DNA of 42,139 nt from Candidatus Doudnabacteria bacterium. Its GTDB lineage: Bacteria > Patescibacteriota > Doudnabacteria > UBA920 > 2-01-FULL-46-14. Made by a program: the position numbers and the translations under genes. Shown here in pieces: positions 7,279 to 12,169 of this stretch (its first letter is position 1; every line of letters starts with the position of its first letter). The stretch is from NCBI GenBank assembly GCA_041497195.1, contig JBGQGB010000002.1, positions 1 to 42,139 of the forward strand, in the 5' to 3' direction. Under the pieces are notes generated by a model. That model did no database searches and had not been told where the DNA came from. It saw only the letters and a list, made by a program, of their open reading frames with translations.

Positions 7279-7290
7279 CAACACTTTTCG

Positions 7291-7329
7291 ATTACCGGAA
7301 GGGTTTTGACTTTTCCGGTAATTTTTTTT
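7291..7329 (+). terminator. Intrinsic terminator after the SH3 gene
   Basis: ATTACCGGAA...TTCCGGTAAT 10-bp stem followed by a T run. Confidence 0.8.
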
Positions 7330-7334
7330 ATACT
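7306..7334 (+). promoter_or_regulatory. Sigma70 promoter for the tRNA-Thr/rpmG unit
   Basis: TTGACT (7306-7311), 17 nt, TATACT (7329-7334). Confidence 0.7.
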
Positions 7335-7388
7335 GCTTCAAGTACGTTTGCAGAAAGGGGCTTCCACCGACGCTCTCGAGTACTCGAT

Positions 7389-7500
7389 CTTTGGCGGACA
7401 AGTGACCGTTTGAAATGCGGTACTCGCCCATCGTAGCTTTGGGTAGTCCAAAGCGAAGTTGGGCCCAAGTAGCTGAAGTTTGTAGACCTGCCCGCCAGAG
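7389..7500. repeat. Nested REP-like palindromic element
   Basis: Outer arms CTTTGGCGGACAAGT / ACCTGCCCGCCAGAG (13 of 15 positions pair) enclose an inner hairpin GCCCA..GCTTTGG..CCAAAGC..TGGGC (7426-7464). Confidence 0.6.
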
Positions 7501-7510
7501 TCGCCAATAC

Positions 7511-7548
7511 GCCGTTGTAGCTCAGCTGGTAGAGCAACTCCATGGTAA
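7511..7548 (+). pseudogene. Orphan copy of the 5' half of tRNA-Thr(GGU)
   Basis: 38 nt identical to the 5' exon at 7672-7707 plus the AA that starts the 3' exon; no acceptor 3' strand follows. Confidence 0.85.
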
Positions 7549-7671
7549 TAAACAGGTCTACTGTCATTATCAGGAAATGCTTGTAGCGACTGGCTAAAAT
7601 GGCGATAGAGTGAGAGATGGGGCCACCTCTCACAGAAAACAGGTCGCCGGTTCTTTGGAAAAATCATATAT

Positions 7672-7938
7672 GCCGTTGTAGCTCAGCTGGTAGAGCAACT
7701 CCATGGTGGGGCATAAGCTCCCTGCCCATTGCCGGAGAAATCCGACAGTGAATCCCGAATTACGGTCAAAGGCTCGAAAGAGTTAAGACCGTGGCGAGCA
7801 ATCGCCCGAACGACTGACAAGGGTGGCTAAATCCGAAAGGATACGCCAAAGATACAGTCTAATCCCCATATAAGTTTTACGAAATTGGGGTGCAAATGAA
7901 GGAGTAGGTCGTCGGTTCAATTCCGACCAACGGCTCCA
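7672..7938 (+). tRNA. tRNA-Thr(GGU), exons 7672-7707 and 7899-7938, interrupted by a group I intron; CCA encoded
   Basis: Joined exons give a full cloverleaf: GCCGTTG/CAACGGC acceptor, GCTC/GAGC D stem, ACTCC-ATGGTAA-GGAGT anticodon arm, GTCGG-TTCAATT-CCGAC T arm, U discriminator, CCA. Confidence 0.93.
7708..7898 (+). ncRNA. Group I intron (191 nt) at tRNA position 36/37
   Basis: 5' exon ends in U and the intron ends in G. P1 has U7707-G7724 wobble; P7 GACTG/CAGTC; S-like AAGATACAGTCT; GAAA/GCAA tetraloop hairpins; P9 CCCCA/TGGGG. Confidence 0.88.
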
Positions 7939-7985
7939 GGCTTTGGCAGGCGGGGCAACTCTCCGCCAGAGGCGGATCAGCTTAA
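7939..7985. repeat. REP-like palindrome after tRNA-Thr
   Basis: Contains TCCGCCAGAGGCGGA and shares CCGCCAGAG with the element at 7492-7500. Confidence 0.55.
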
Positions 7986-8006
7986 CTAAATAATCAAGGA
8001 ATCAAA

Positions 8007-8165
8007 ATGGCGCAAGAGAATTTGGTAAAGATGCAATGCACGGTCTGCAAGCGAATCAATTACTATACGACCAGAAATAAAAAATCTACGCCCGAGGCGC
8101 TGGAACTCAAAAAGTTTTGCAAATGGGATCGCAAAAAGACAGTGCATAAGGAAATGAAGAAGTAA
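8007..8165 (+). CDS. rpmG: 50S ribosomal protein L33 (52 aa; too short for the ORF track)
   Basis: MAQENLVKMQCTVCKRINYYTTRNKKSTPEALELKKFCKWDRKKTVHKEMKK; SD AAGGA upstream. Confidence 0.95.
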   Translation: MAQENLVKMQCTVCKRINYYTTRNKKSTPEALELKKFCKWDRKKTVHKEMKK

Positions 8166-8202: not shown

Positions 8203-8249
8203 AGCCAGCCCTATTTTTTTATTCAAATTTTATCTTCACGATATCTGGG
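8203..8249. repeat. Direct repeat copy A (metallophosphoesterase 3'-end-like)
   Basis: 42/47 identical, ungapped, to 8957-9003; 8217-8249 is 29/33 identical to 10995-11027. Confidence 0.9.
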
Positions 8250-8258
8250 ATTTTGTCC

Positions 8259-8287
8259 TTGATATCCAAAACGATTTCTGATACGCT
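8259..8287 (+). promoter_or_regulatory. Promoter of the 174-aa orphan gene
   Basis: TTGATA, 17 nt, TGaTACGCT. Confidence 0.6.
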
Positions 8288-8374
8288 GGACTGTCAGTTC
8301 ATGCTGACGATGTCCGAGCCTACAAGGGGAGGACATAGCTCCAAAAACCTATAAGGTGAATAGGAGGAAAAAAT

Positions 8375-8899
8375 ATGAAGGCGAGAGTCGCGAGGTTGTA
8401 TTTCCGCAGACATCCATGGCTGGGTGATTTATTTCGGGAATGGGGCTACGAATTTCGAGATAGTTGGCTGCAGGAGCGGCTGCACTTCATTGCGTTTAAG
8501 CCGTTCCGGTCTCTCGACTTGGATGCGTCTTTTCCCACAGAGGAAAACCGGTGTTGTCTCCATCACGGCGGACCCCTCGAAAGTTCGATGCATGCGTTTG
8601 TTATGTTCCACTATGTGGGGCCGCCGACAGAGGCACCTTGGGATCGGGCCACGAAACCCTTTTTTAAGCACCTCGGTCGTGTACGTGAGGGTCGCCCCCT
8701 GATCCAGGAGCTCAGGAGTATTTGCAATCAGCGTAGCAGTGATGATTATGCGCTGAGACCAGACGCAATTGTGGTGCGGTTTCAACTGAAGAGCGCCCAC
8801 CTCGGGATTTTAAATGCCGCTGTTGAAGTCTATCTGATTCCCGAGTCGTGGGAGCCACCTGTCGCTCCCGCGAAATCAAAGCGAGCAAAAAAGCCTTAG
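8375..8899 (+). CDS. Hypothetical protein (174 aa)
   Basis: Strong SD AGGAGG, own promoter and terminator; no recognised motif. Confidence 0.8.
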   Translation: MKARVARLYFRRHPWLGDLFREWGYEFRDSWLQERLHFIAFKPFRSLDLDASFPTEENRCCLHHGGPLESSMHAFVMFHYVGPPTEAPWDRATKPFFKHLGRVREGRPLIQELRSICNQRSSDDYALRPDAIVVRFQLKSAHLGILNAAVEVYLIPESWEPPVAPAKSKRAKKP

Positions 8900-8934
8900 C
8901 CAGGAGAAAGGCCTCTTGCGAATGCTTGTTTTGA

Positions 8935-8974
8935 AGGGTCGGTCTGCCTCACGGCAAGCCGGCCCTATTTTTTT
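8935..8974 (+). terminator. Terminator of the 174-aa gene; right arm lies inside repeat copy B
   Basis: AGGGTCGG..TGCC-tcac-GGCA..CCGGCCCT followed by a 7-T run. Confidence 0.8.
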
Positions 8975-9006
8975 GCTCAAATTTTATCTTCACGATCTCC
9001 GGGCGG
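8957..9006. repeat. Direct repeat copy B
   Basis: 8971-9006 is 32/36 identical to 10995-11030 (3' end of the metallophosphoesterase gene). Confidence 0.9.
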
Positions 9007-9027
9007 GTTTAAAATGCCCAAGCAAAT

Positions 9028-9588
9028 TTAGTTCTTTAGATATTCATTTTTTAAGAACTCAGTGAAGTCATCCATTTCTTTTTTGTATAGCAGCCGCCTC
9101 TCATTTCTCGTTTCTTCCGGAAGGTCGGGCAGTACCTCGAGCCCGTTGCTTTGAATACGGAAGCCGTATGCAATGTTATCGAATCCAAGCATTGCGTCGT
9201 AAGGGACTTTTCTGTCGTTGACGCGATAAAATTGATCTAAAAGTCTTATTGATTTGAGTCGTAATTCTCGTCCTTCTTTGTCCACTTTTTCCCGAAGCTC
9301 GTCATTATACTGCCACTTTTCGACATCCGGTTCTTCTGGGTACACTTCGACCCAAGGGGCGAGCGTTTGTTCCTCCAAGACCCTATCAGTCTCGGAATGT
9401 CCTTCGCAGGATTGCCTGGTGCGCAGTCCGTGAGCGTTAAACATTATGACTGCTTCTTTGATGCCCGGTTCAATAGGTCTGCCTGTCGCGTCAGTAATTT
9501 GGTCGATCTCCTTTCGGATTTCCTGAAGGTGATGCTCTTTGGCTGGCCTTCCTTGATCTCCGTGCAGTTCGTCAGAATTTGATGCCAT
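9028..9588 (-). CDS. Hypothetical protein with an N-x2-G-x2-T-x2-SCEGH motif
   Basis: 186-aa ORF coupled 5 nt downstream of the 442-aa ORF. Confidence 0.8.
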   Translation of the reverse strand: MASNSDELHGDQGRPAKEHHLQEIRKEIDQITDATGRPIEPGIKEAVIMFNAHGLRTRQSCEGHSETDRVLEEQTLAPWVEVYPEEPDVEKWQYNDELREKVDKEGRELRLKSIRLLDQFYRVNDRKVPYDAMLGFDNIAYGFRIQSNGLEVLPDLPEETRNERRLLYKKEMDDFTEFLKNEYLKN

Positions 9589-9593
9589 AGATT

Positions 9594-10922
9594 TTAGAGC
9601 TTAGATCTTAGATAGCCCAAAAGGTCTCCCATAACGCGTTCTTCAGATGGCCATCCTGTAACACTACCTGAAACTAATAATAGTCTAGTATTTATAGTAT
9701 TTAATAATATTTTTTTTTCTCGATCAGTGAGCGCTTGAAGAATCTGTTTGTCTGCTATAGTCGAGTGTACAAAGGCATCTTTGTCAGGGTTAGCTTTCAT
9801 TGCTTGAGTCATTAAATTTTCGTACTCTTTTTTGAGGTTTTTAAGTCTCTGAAGAAATCTATCTCCATCAGGATAAAGCATCCTAAAAGCGTCTAGGATG
9901 GCTGCTGTATTTTTTTGTTGGGTTTCCTGGTCTTTGCGGTTATCTCTGCGACCTTCTTCAATGTAGGGGGCATTCAGAATTTGATCGACGGCTTCTCTAG
10001 CGCTGTTTTTATTTCCTCGTTCGTTTAGCTTGGCCCGAATGTTATTGAGCTCGTTTTGGTTATTCTTTTGGTTTCTCGCGACCACTGCTTCTTTTGTAAA
10101 TTTTTTGGTTACCAAATTCCTAAGCGAGGCATCCAGATTCCTTTTGTCACCGGTTCGGCTGAATTGGGTGCCGATTGTTCTCAATTCACCAGTCAAGAAA
10201 TGCATTTCTTGTTCCGACATATTTCCGACACGTCGCAGCAGCTCCTGTCGAGAAGGAACATCTTCGGGGACGCCAGCAAGCGAATACAATTTTTCCAGAG
10301 AGCTAGTCGTCGATGAGCGACCCTGCATCTCTTGTTCACGAGCCCGTTGTCCAGTAGAAGTCCGTTCCGCCCTTGCTTGTTTCTCCATAAACAAAGCGTC
10401 TCTTATGGCTCGGCGCTCATCCCAGGATTGCTTGATTTCCGGTGTAAGGTTCCTTTGCGAGGTGGCGCGTGTTTGCAATAAGCCTTCCACGTATTTTAGT
10501 GTTTTTTCAATGCCCTGCATTCCCTCCTGCCCTGGTTGGTTCATCTGCAGAATTGTGCTTTGAATTTCCAAAGCATCCCGTCTATCACTATGATCTCCAA
10601 GAGATCCCAGTTCTTCCGCGTTTCGATTTAGGGTAGCCTGAGATTCTTGAAAAGACAGAGGCTCCCTGCCCGTCCTTTGGTTTTCCAGTCCATTAGCTTG
10701 GGTGGCTACATAGCGTAGCTCGTCATTCCAGTTTCCTGGCTGTTCCAAAAGCTGCTGGCCTTTGTGATAGTTTTCTTGAGCAAATTCCGTACCTGCGCGG
10801 ATATAAGTATCATAAAACGCAGATCGCCCCATTGAAGCGCTTCTATCGGCAATTTCATACATTTTTCTAGCTACTTCCTGGGATTGATTTTGTGTGGTTT
10901 CTTGGCTTTCGACGTATGGCAT
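9594..10922 (-). CDS. Hypothetical charged, helical protein (442 aa)
   Basis: Long ORF rich in E/Q/R/K, no TM; TATAAT on the minus strand just upstream. Confidence 0.82.
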   Translation of the reverse strand: MPYVESQETTQNQSQEVARKMYEIADRSASMGRSAFYDTYIRAGTEFAQENYHKGQQLLEQPGNWNDELRYVATQANGLENQRTGREPLSFQESQATLNRNAEELGSLGDHSDRRDALEIQSTILQMNQPGQEGMQGIEKTLKYVEGLLQTRATSQRNLTPEIKQSWDERRAIRDALFMEKQARAERTSTGQRAREQEMQGRSSTTSSLEKLYSLAGVPEDVPSRQELLRRVGNMSEQEMHFLTGELRTIGTQFSRTGDKRNLDASLRNLVTKKFTKEAVVARNQKNNQNELNNIRAKLNERGNKNSAREAVDQILNAPYIEEGRRDNRKDQETQQKNTAAILDAFRMLYPDGDRFLQRLKNLKKEYENLMTQAMKANPDKDAFVHSTIADKQILQALTDREKKILLNTINTRLLLVSGSVTGWPSEERVMGDLLGYLRSKL

Positions 10923-10996
10923 CGGAGAAAGTTTACGCTGCTTTTTGCGAGTTTATTATAACCTAGTAAAATAAAGACCGCCATTCTCAGGCAGTT

Positions 10997-12169
10997 TTAT
11001 TCAAATTGTATCTTCACAATCTCCGGGCGGTTGCCGACGCGCATCAGCGGGCCCCAGGTACCGACACCATTGGTCGTGTAGATGGTCAAACGGCCTGATT
11101 TGTTGAGCCCGTAGTGAAAACGTCCGTAAATCAGGCGACTGACGTAATTAAAAGGAAAAATTTGCCCTTTGTGCGTATGACCAGAGAGCATCAGAGAAAC
11201 TCCCGCCTGTTCAATTTCTTTTATATTTACTGGCGCGTGAAACAGTAAGATGCTCGGCTTGTTGCGGGCAAAAGCGAGATGAGCCAGCACATCGCTTATT
11301 TTGCCAAATTTTTCGCTCATTCGGTAGTCGAGGCCCATAATCTGCATGCCCTGGACCTCGATAAAGCTATCCCGCAAGATGTTGACCCCGATTTTTGTGA
11401 GAGCATCGGTGACGAGCTGGTCGTTGCCGACAAATTCGTCGTGATTGCCGAACGCGAAGTGAATTCCCATACTCGGCTGGAGTTTTGCCAATGGGGACAC
11501 GCCATCCACAAAATCCATGGTGGGCCCGTCAAAAACATCCCCGGCGATAAAGATGACGTCTGGGTTGAGCGCGGCCGTTGTTTCGACAATTTTTCGCATG
11601 AATTTTTTTCCGTGAATCAGGCCCAGGTGAGAGTCTGCAAAAAGTACGGCGGTTTTATGCTGCCAGGCGGGCGGGAGATTTTCGAGTTTGATGCTCAATT
11701 CCCTGATGGCCGGTCTTCGCCCATTCCACAGGCCATAGCCACAAACGATAATCGCGATCGCGAATACGGTTTGATGAACGATTGCTCCTGCTTGGGGGTT
11801 GAGGGGAGCGCCCTGGAGGATATAGATAATCCAGGACAGAAATGAGGCAAAGAACAAATAGGTGATGATCCCGAGCCAGAAGGACGATACTGAATAAAAA
11901 AACCGAAGTGTAGAATTGTTTCGGCTTCGGGAAAGAAATGAGGTCAAAATAAACATCACGGGTAGGACCGCGAAAATAGGCAGGGCCGCGTCTAAAAGAT
12001 ACGGTTCAGGAAGAACCCCAAAGTACGCGACAGTGTGGTAAACGAAGTAGGTCGCCAACCCGAGAACAAGTGAAAAAACCAGGAGGAAAATTATGAAAGC
12101 GATGCGCACGGGAACTCTTGGGATTAATTGCAAACCGAGCTTGTTTTGAATTATATCGAAAATAGGCAA
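10997..12169 (-). CDS. Membrane-anchored metallophosphoesterase (YkuE-like)
   Basis: ADSHLG, AGDVFD, GNHD, LLFHAP, SGHTHKGQ calcineurin-like motifs; N-terminal TM helices. Its last codons are repeat copy C (10995-11030). Confidence 0.93.
   Translation of the reverse strand: MPIFDIIQNKLGLQLIPRVPVRIAFIIFLLVFSLVLGLATYFVYHTVAYFGVLPEPYLLDAALPIFAVLPVMFILTSFLSRSRNNSTLRFFYSVSSFWLGIITYLFFASFLSWIIYILQGAPLNPQAGAIVHQTVFAIAIIVCGYGLWNGRRPAIRELSIKLENLPPAWQHKTAVLFADSHLGLIHGKKFMRKIVETTAALNPDVIFIAGDVFDGPTMDFVDGVSPLAKLQPSMGIHFAFGNHDEFVGNDQLVTDALTKIGVNILRDSFIEVQGMQIMGLDYRMSEKFGKISDVLAHLAFARNKPSILLFHAPVNIKEIEQAGVSLMLSGHTHKGQIFPFNYVSRLIYGRFHYGLNKSGRLTIYTTNGVGTWGPLMRVGNRPEIVKIQFE

Follow-up and report, generated by a model that had tools for sequence, protein, structure and literature searches.

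The DNA analysed here, referred to as the window, is a stretch of 42,139 nucleotides from a Candidatus Doudnabacteria bacterium (contig JBGQGB010000002.1) that carries, at 7672-7938, a threonine tRNA gene, tRNA-Thr(GGU), interrupted by an intron. An orphan, intron-less copy of the 5' half of this tRNA precedes the gene at 7511-7548. We propose, at a probability of roughly 0.8, that the orphan is the relic of a left attachment site (attL) of a tyrosine-recombinase island of the Candidate Phyla Radiation (CPR), Parcubacteria-type, whose body is gone and whose spare, intron-bearing tRNA gene has stayed at the site.

According to this proposal, the island would enter the host tRNA-Thr(GGU) gene at its anticodon loop, the attachment sites of island and host (attP and attB) sharing only the sequence ATGGTAA. 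Integration would leave the host gene unrebuilt, with its 5' half at one end of the island and its 3' half at the other, and the island itself would supply a complete tRNA-Thr(GGU) gene about 125 bp inside its left end, with its own -10-like box and usually with an intron within the core. In the window, the arm at 7549-7671 and the tRNA gene at 7672-7938 would have been kept from the island and joined directly to the host trailer and rpmG; the two recombinase genes Int1 and Int2, the cargo, the right arm and the host 3' half would have been lost. The likeliest route of loss would be homologous recombination between the island 3' exon and the host 3' half, which are nearly identical over about 40 nt, and the resulting 3' exon may be chimeric.

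The orphan 5' half, the interrupted gene and their assembly support

A repeat search identified a 40-nt direct repeat in which 7507-7546 and 7668-7707 are identical at 39 of 40 positions. Within it, 7511-7546 matches the 5' exon of the gene (7672-7707) at 36/36 positions, and the two bases that follow, AA at 7547-7548, are the first two bases of the 3' exon (7899-7900). Thus, as the preliminary description of this DNA had claimed, the orphan is exactly positions 1-38 of the spliced tRNA-Thr(GGU), through the last base of the anticodon loop. Positions 1-31 of the host tRNA (7511-7541) comprise the 5' strand of the acceptor stem, the D arm and the 5' strand of the anticodon stem, all identical to the 5' exon. 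The 7-nt anticodon loop ATGGTAA at 7542-7548 corresponds to the attL common core, or crossover segment, and identity between attL and the right junction (attR) is confined to these 7 nt. The left junction reads ...ACTCC-ATGGTAA-TAAAC... and contains no 3' strand of the anticodon stem, so no tRNA is rebuilt there. The intact gene, which includes CCA, consists of the 5' exon, a 191-nt intron at 7708-7898 between tRNA positions 36 and 37, and the 3' exon with CCA at 7899-7938. It was missed both by ARAGORN and by the Rfam scan. These features and the arm and flanks from 7306 to 8006 that are described below lie on the plus strand.

A second repeat lies in the DNA between the orphan and the gene. 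The 9-nt sequence AAACAGGTC was found at 7550-7558 and 7637-7645, the same coordinates as had been given earlier, with the copies 87 bp apart. Because AAACAGGTC occurs 13 times in the 0.97-Mb genome, counting both strands, against 7.4 occurrences expected, two same-strand copies at this distance are unlikely to have arisen by chance (about 6 in 10,000). The earlier observation that 7641-7653 (AGGTCGCCGGTTC) resembles the variable loop and T stem was reproduced, with 12/13 positions identical to AGGTCGTCGGTTC at 7906-7918. Deletion of 87 bp (one AAACAGGTC copy and the 78 bp between the copies) gives a tRNA-like register up to TTC, also as described before, except that TAAAC replaces GGAGT.

The duplication had been considered open to refutation as an assembly artefact, and at the level of assemblies this question is answered. 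The spacer 7279-8006 (728 nt) is letter-identical in four contigs from separate assemblies (JGI 3300052992, 3300052987 and 3300053056, and NCBI GCA_041493695.1), one of which may be the window's own. The SH3-domain protein encoded upstream was found on seven further contigs, four of which hold the whole spacer. Three Logan contigs break off within the repeated 40 nt, at window positions 7536-7540, which is to be expected of k=31 assemblies.

Recurrence of the junction and the origin of the two copies

Among 60 relatives, most carry an intron-less tRNA-Thr(GGT) gene, and seven others have the intron without a 5' stump. Two genomes of another family (G060 and G054) have the intron together with an upstream 5' half, in the same TAAACAGGTC ... 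AAACAGGTC arrangement as in the window. An exact-match scan for the junction CTCCATGGTAATAAACAGGTC, with one genome per species, returned 10 loci in other species genomes, two of them the contigs of G060 and G054. The genomes are labelled Parcubacteria, Kerfeldbacteria and Giovannonibacteria, among others, and some look mislabelled. Comparison of the locus in relatives, which the preliminary description had proposed, thus yields the same junction in 10 other species genomes and argues against a local duplication. Where the contig is long enough, the order is always the same: first a 5' half with ATGGTAA at its end, next 118-142 bp of arm, and then a complete tRNA-Thr(GGT) gene; seven loci extend far enough to contain the complete gene, and the intron is present in all but one. 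Where the contig continues beyond the island tRNA, a terminator-like hairpin is followed by an open reading frame (ORF) with the pattern M(D/Q)I..L...F.(D/E)YS.Y.RGYS.DTI.RY. This ORF, Int1, encodes a 298-aa tyrosine recombinase, matching PF00589 (E = 2e-28) and an N-terminal SAM-like domain.

We compared the window segment by segment with a complete island of the type found in G069 (contig L091). The leader upstream of the orphan is 42% identical to the island contig and the trailer downstream of the tRNA 45%, both at chance level. Between them, identity is 89% for the orphan, 80.5% for the arm (7549-7671), 100% for the 5' exon (7672-7707, 36/36 positions) and 94.8% for the intron, and 37/39 aligned positions of the 3' exon agree. 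The homology stops exactly at the tRNA 3' end. The two differences in the 3' exon (7912 and 7926) are the two sides of one T-stem pair. This 3' exon is the probable recombination site at which the island body was removed. Apart from conserved tRNA segments, 4 kb of the window contain no other DNA match to the G069 genome; an island-like block shared by two genomes that otherwise do not match therefore points to horizontal transfer.

Relatives with intact islands distinguish the host's copy from the island's. On four contigs (L053, L054, L056 and L058), the acceptor strand of the orphan reads GCCAACG or GCCGATG, against GCCGTCT or GCCGTTG in the adjacent gene, and is not complementary to the adjacent 3' exon. 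A search with the spliced tRNA identified distal 3' orphans in G061, G062, G064, G066 and G069 that start at position 32, cover 32-76 and are preceded by unrelated DNA. The 3' half of G061 is found on the orphan's own contig, about 12 kb further downstream, and its end CGTTGGCTCCA (CGTTGGC) exactly complements the orphan GCCAACG. The 3' halves of G064, G066 and G062 end in CATCGGCTCCA (CATCGGC), complementing GCCGATG, and in G064 rpmG follows directly. The acceptor strands of the 3' orphans complement those of the 5' orphans and not the island tRNA, which identifies the orphans as the host gene in two parts. Judged by these sequences, the 7-nt anticodon loop is precisely what the two host halves have in common, and the complete gene lying between them is the island's.

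This assignment reverses the roles that had been given to the two copies: the orphan is the 5' half of the host's intron-less gene, and the downstream intron-containing gene is the element's copy. The earlier suggestion of a scar left by an element that had duplicated the 5' half is retained as far as the integrase-type scar and the crossover in the anticodon loop are concerned, but the element did not duplicate that half. Similarly, the suggestion that the orphan is a copy of an intron-less allele is correct insofar as the stump is a remnant of that allele, and not otherwise.

The approximately 12-kb G061 island encodes Int1, a DUF4238 protein, a type I restriction-modification system, a PD-(D/E)XK nuclease and Int2. 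No phage structural genes were found in it, and it does not classify as a temperate phage. In the G069 island, a cytosine-methylase-like gene is all that lies between Int1 and Int2, and the cargo of L055, read by eye, is N6-methylase-like. G069 also contains two tandem 5' orphans, both ending in ATGGTAA (L070, G069:C37, 340-485), and two nested 3' pieces (L067, G069:C14, 1618-1716). Such nesting would be expected if, in this Giovannonibacteria genome, a second island had split the spare tRNA of a first, now almost bodiless and intron-less element.

Other tRNA-Thr loci carry fragments of different kinds. On L082 and L090 (about 125 nt upstream of the tRNA) and at L049 (G018) 1018-1010, stubs of the first 13 nt (GCCGTTGTAGCTC) or 9 nt (GCCGTTGTA) of the tRNA lie at distances of 115-125 nt; these stub-bearing, intron-containing genes are followed by host DNA and separated from the stub by GC-rich palindromic repeats. 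The stubs could represent more advanced decay of the scar described here, or they could stem from a different type of element. In the same-family genome G001 (L039, about 1146-1163), an intron-less tRNA-Thr(GGT) gene is followed at about 55 nt by GGGTAAGGAGTAGGCC, which covers the anticodon-loop end, the 3' strand of the stem and the variable loop. A 141-aa ORF separates this fragment from rpmG; the fragment may be a right-junction remnant. Finally, upstream of an intron-less tRNA-Thr(GGT) gene in G036 (L030, 1360-1500), a pseudo-copy comprises positions 1-30, an insert of about 84 nt with GC-rich hairpins, and CATGGTAAGGAGTAGGTC. It stops before the T arm and shows that tRNA-Thr scars of another kind exist within the same bacterial order.

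The arm, the intron and the host-type flanks

The arm has three marked features: one site, TAAACAGGTC (7549-7558), that adjoins the core; another, AAACAGGTCGCCGG (7637-7650); and, immediately 5' of the tRNA, an A/T-rich -10-like box (7663-7671). In an alignment of arms from 10 species genomes, TAAACAGGTC is kept directly after the core. A second copy of AACAGGTC follows 76 or 87-88 bp beyond in 7/10 aligned loci, often with (G/C)NCGG after it, and in most loci a TACAAT/TATAAT-like box lies 5-10 nt before the spare tRNA. In the right arm, the motif occurs a third time, about 97 bp ahead of the core, so that copies stand at about -97, +8 and +95 bp from the core start. The sequence between the conserved sites varies freely, and the orphan plus spacer measures 156-180 nt in 10 genomes. 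No conserved RNA structure was detected in the arm by RNAalifold, and folding of the single sequence gave z = -0.7. This pattern fits protein-binding DNA, with the AAACAGGTC copies as putative recombinase sites.

The 87-bp deletion restores the tRNA register because the motif is itself similar to the variable loop with the first part of the T stem. This likeness could reflect either recognition by the recombinase or descent from a classical attP. As regards a 3' tRNA part of attP, only AGGTC and a CGG-type T-stem start recur after the core; neither a T loop nor an acceptor strand was found. We also considered whether the 87-bp segment is a transposon flanked by a 9-bp target duplication. No terminal inverted repeats were seen by eye, and the AAACAGGTC copies keep a fixed spacing though the intervening sequence differs between genomes, with a third copy in the right arm; this reading was rejected, and the copies are taken instead as conserved parts of the arm beside the core and as putative binding sites.

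The consensus fold of the intron, derived from 11 homologues, comprises the tRNA frame together with P1, P2 and P4-P9, and 35/69 pairs show compensatory changes. The U36-G pair of P1 is present in 11/11 sequences, the G immediately before the 3' exon is invariant, and P7 (GACUG/CAGUC), also invariant, is preceded by AAGAUACAGUC. Rfam returned no significant group I intron or tRNA match, and the group I model gave no hit even at E <= 10. The modelled fold supports assignment to group I despite the missing Rfam match.

The intron sits within the 7-nt core (positions 36/37), and the spare gene is therefore without an intact core. The intron-less spare gene of G061 has a different anticodon stem (CACC/GGTG-type), and the one spare gene that was itself invaded, the first of G069, is intron-less with the standard stem. 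The intron of the window is 91% identical to that of G069, a genome otherwise without a DNA match, and 81% identical to introns in genomes of another family, compared with 68-70% for genomes of its own family. By these sequence comparisons, intron similarity does not track host relatedness. The states of the spare genes and the intron similarities fit a scenario in which the intron masks the spare gene and islands spread the intron, and are no proof of it.

An ORF of about 212 aa was observed directly upstream of stump-free, intron-containing tRNA-Thr(GGT) genes on three unrelated contigs (L047 943-1581, in G043, and behind L084 and L088). The encoded protein is helix-turn-helix-like in its N-terminal region, carries FGMGLGLYWGEG as an internal motif and ends in a sequence like ...YYHNKKLRDLICSELEKL. 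A Pfam search with this protein, considered as a possible homing endonuclease, gave no significant match, only weak helix-turn-helix hints; a free-standing endonuclease associated with the intron-bearing allele is one possibility.

The sequences that flank the orphan and the gene are of host type. A promoter-like site (TTGACT-17-TATACT, 7306-7334, 10/12 matches) lies just after the terminator of the SH3-domain gene, and a similar TTGACA...TATACT lies upstream of the intron-less tRNA-Thr(GGT) gene in the same-family genome G001. The leader (7463-7510) consists of a decayed tRNA-like acceptor/D-arm fragment at 7463-7486, CCTGCCCGCC at 7487-7496 and TCGCC, motifs that also precede the tRNA-Thr(CGT) gene of the same genome (C2:150412-150454). 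The trailer (7939-8006) contains GGCAGGCGGGGCA at 7945-7957 and the hairpin TCCGCC-AGA-GGCGGA at 7962-7976, extends to rpmG (8007-8165), and is 78% identical to the tRNA-Thr(CGT) trailer. The leader pairs with the trailer region 7936-7990 at -36.9 kcal/mol (z = -3.6 against shuffles); the arm does not pair. In family relatives, the gene order SH3 gene, tRNA-Thr(GGT), rpmG is kept whether the intron is present or absent. The promoter at 7306-7334 probably drives the whole transcript from orphan to tRNA, and the orphan is probably a relic without evident function that is co-transcribed in the leader.

Both tRNA-Thr loci of the genome share a further pattern: on the 5' side a decayed acceptor/D-arm fragment (GCCCAAGTAGCTGAAGTTTGTAGA and GCCGACCTAGCTCAATTGGCAGA) followed by CCTGCCCGCC..TCGCC, on the 3' side GGCAGGCGGGGCA and a TCCGCC/GGCGGA hairpin, with leader and trailer complementary at z of about -3.5. 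This shared pattern could be a stem used in processing, or it could be what is left around an older insertion, of another kind, that replaced a tRNA.

The island body is absent. The tRNA of the window is followed neither by the ACTGCA...TGCAGT hairpin nor by an integrase gene, both of which are present after the tRNA in all island copies. Searches with tblastn of the 13 contigs of this 98.65%-complete genome recovered no homologue of Int1, Int2 or the methylase-like protein except one recombinase at C1:173721-174632, which is 27-33% identical. A DNA search of the genome identified neither a 3' orphan nor a second tRNA-Thr(GGT) copy, and a standard ARAGORN scan (without intron search) found only the CGT and TGT tRNA-Thr genes and no other tRNA-Thr(GGT). 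On this sequence evidence, the imported gene is the only tRNA-Thr(GGU) gene of the genome and is predicted to be indispensable. ARAGORN also called a tRNA-Ile with anticodon TAT and a 75-nt 'tRNA-Ser(GCT)' without a long variable arm, both unusual (C3:49136-49210 and C1:131197-131271). Three ORFs 3' of rpmG (8375-8899, 9028-9588 and 9594-10922) have no Pfam match, and no sequence link to the tRNA-Thr island was found in the window at 8203-11030.

Competing explanations and relation to known systems

Several points weigh against reading the orphan as an attL relic. The locus contains no integrase, right junction or cargo, so that the island origin of 7549-7938 rests on the islands of other genomes. 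Here the orphan equals the 5' exon, and the separate origins of the two copies are therefore not readable from this sequence alone. The deletion route draws on the end point of the homology and one compensatory T-stem difference, and recombinase binding to AAACAGGTC is putative.

A mis-join across the 3' half of about 40 nt is a further such point, and it leads to an alternative that we consider improbable, namely that the island is still present, with its body on an unbinned contig. Other metagenome-assembled genomes do break at exactly these repeats (the island ends are on separate contigs in the G064, G066, G062 and G069 assemblies), and small island contigs are easily lost from bins. However, the mis-join would have had to occur identically in four separate assemblies from different samples, all with the same 728-nt spacer and with tRNA, trailer and rpmG contiguous. 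Moreover, current assemblers work with final k-mers and reads longer than the shared 3' half, and neither Int1 nor Int2 was found on any contig of the nearly complete genome.

Quite improbable in our estimation is a functional orphan kept by selection, either as an alternative 5' exon or splice substrate, the former already raised in the preliminary description, or as a tRNA-half-like or decoy RNA. Its probable co-transcription from the promoter at 7306-7334 would allow such a role, it has remained intact at 38/38 positions though the island is gone, and its GGU end could form the 3-bp exon part of P1. Yet the 5' strand of P1 continues from the last three exon bases into the start of the intron, and the AAUAAA that follows the orphan does not fit. 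In relatives, the orphan acceptors (GCCGATG, GCCAACG) mismatch the adjacent 3' exon and fit the distant 3' orphan. These points leave the alternative 5' exon unsupported. The arm also lacks a conserved RNA structure, and the product would be identical to the normal one, with no obvious gain.

We regard as very improbable a local partial tandem duplication of a host intron-containing gene, by slippage or unequal crossing-over, followed by decay and without any mobile element. The tandem arrangement of the copies, 161 bp apart, and their identity over 36 nt speak for it, but the orphan runs past the splice site as the spliced form, and in every genome its end point is exactly the last base of the anticodon loop. 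Furthermore, at least 10 genomes have integrase-bearing islands whose arm is homologous to the 123 bp between the copies, and the orphans of relatives differ from the adjacent gene and match the distant 3' halves. The chances are just as slim for a classical island whose attP carried the tRNA 5' half and regenerated the gene, leaving about 123 bp as all that remains of the element: the order orphan, foreign DNA, complete gene is what such an attP would give, but the islands of relatives, those of G061 and G069 above all, contradict it: their integrases and cargo lie downstream of the complete gene rather than between orphan and gene, the far end is a 3' half and no rebuilt gene, and a spacer of 118-142 bp in 10 genomes is no random deletion remnant.

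An attL relic of a CPR island also has counterparts among known elements, of which the actinobacteriophages come nearest. Actinobacteriophages (Fionnbharth, Cluster L and others) undergo tRNA-dependent lysogeny, in which a tyrosine integrase uses an attB in a host tRNA gene with a short core, no tRNA is rebuilt and the element carries the cognate tRNA (Guerrero-Bustamante & Hatfull, mBio 2024, PMC10865867). The CPR island family likewise has a tyrosine integrase, an attB in a tRNA gene, a 7-nt core and its own tRNA. In contrast to the phages, the CPR elements are small non-phage islands with two small XerC/D-like recombinases that lack a lambda-type arm-binding domain; their core is exactly the 7-nt anticodon loop, and the spare tRNA usually has a group I intron inside that core. 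The window further differs in being an integrase-less relic in which the replacement gene is now resident. Integration of the Lactobacillus johnsonii prophage Lj965, which encodes a cognate tRNA, also leaves the tRNA not rebuilt (cited in PMC10865867); as far as that mention goes, it differs from the CPR islands in being a prophage, with no intron reported, from another phylum.

The likeness to classical anticodon-loop islands lies in a crossover at the 7-nt loop flanked by the symmetric anticodon stem. In classical elements, attP carries a tRNA 3' segment and the gene is regenerated at attL. In contrast, the CPR arm keeps only a faint likeness (AGGTC..CGG), the stem is not rebuilt and a whole spare gene is carried. 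Group I introns occur in the anticodon loops of bacterial tRNA genes such as cyanobacterial tRNA-Leu(UAA), Azoarcus tRNA-Ile and Agrobacterium tRNA-Arg. Like these, the intron of the window is small (191 nt), ORF-less and located in the anticodon loop, with U-G at the 5' splice site and a terminal G; unlike them, it interrupts tRNA-Thr(GGU) and resides on an integrative island. Accessory direct repeats are found in the recombination sites of small tyrosine recombinases such as TnpI of Tn4430, which we take as a lead only. The CPR sites resemble TnpI-type sites in having a short motif repeated in direct orientation beside the core, with a recombinase that lacks a separate arm-binding domain, but the spacing and sequence of the motif are specific to the CPR island family and its binding is putative. 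As to the crossover itself, Williams, in Nucleic Acids Res in 2002, is said to have described classical prophages and islands in which a tyrosine recombinase crosses over in the 7-nt anticodon loop, with orphan tRNA pieces at the ends. No description of CPR islands or tRNA introns of this kind was found in the literature searched.

For annotation, the failure of both ARAGORN and Rfam to detect the interrupted gene means that a pipeline could report tRNA-Thr(GGU) as lacking, or miscall the stump. A broader interpretation, which we offer as a tentative one, is that the locus is a caught intermediate of hit-and-run tRNA gene replacement, that islands rather than homing endonucleases spread the intron, and that the intron masks the spare gene. 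If so, the stump would disappear on a further recombination, this time between the 5' halves; the island's own recombinase would not recognise the spare gene, whose core is split by the intron; and a lineage that keeps the intron, as this one does, would admit no more islands at the site.

Break-and-replace integration at tRNA genes, reported to date for actinobacteriophages only (in 2024), is thus seen here in small defence islands of ultra-small CPR bacteria. Added to it are a putative self-splicing intron exactly in the crossover core and a post-island state in which the foreign allele stands in the context of the host promoter, leader and trailer. The islands would provide a concrete and testable path along which an intron lacking a homing-endonuclease gene may move between distantly related genomes. 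The locus shows a foreign, intron-bearing tRNA allele fixed at a native site of the host after the vehicle was lost, a variant of a recently described type of event.

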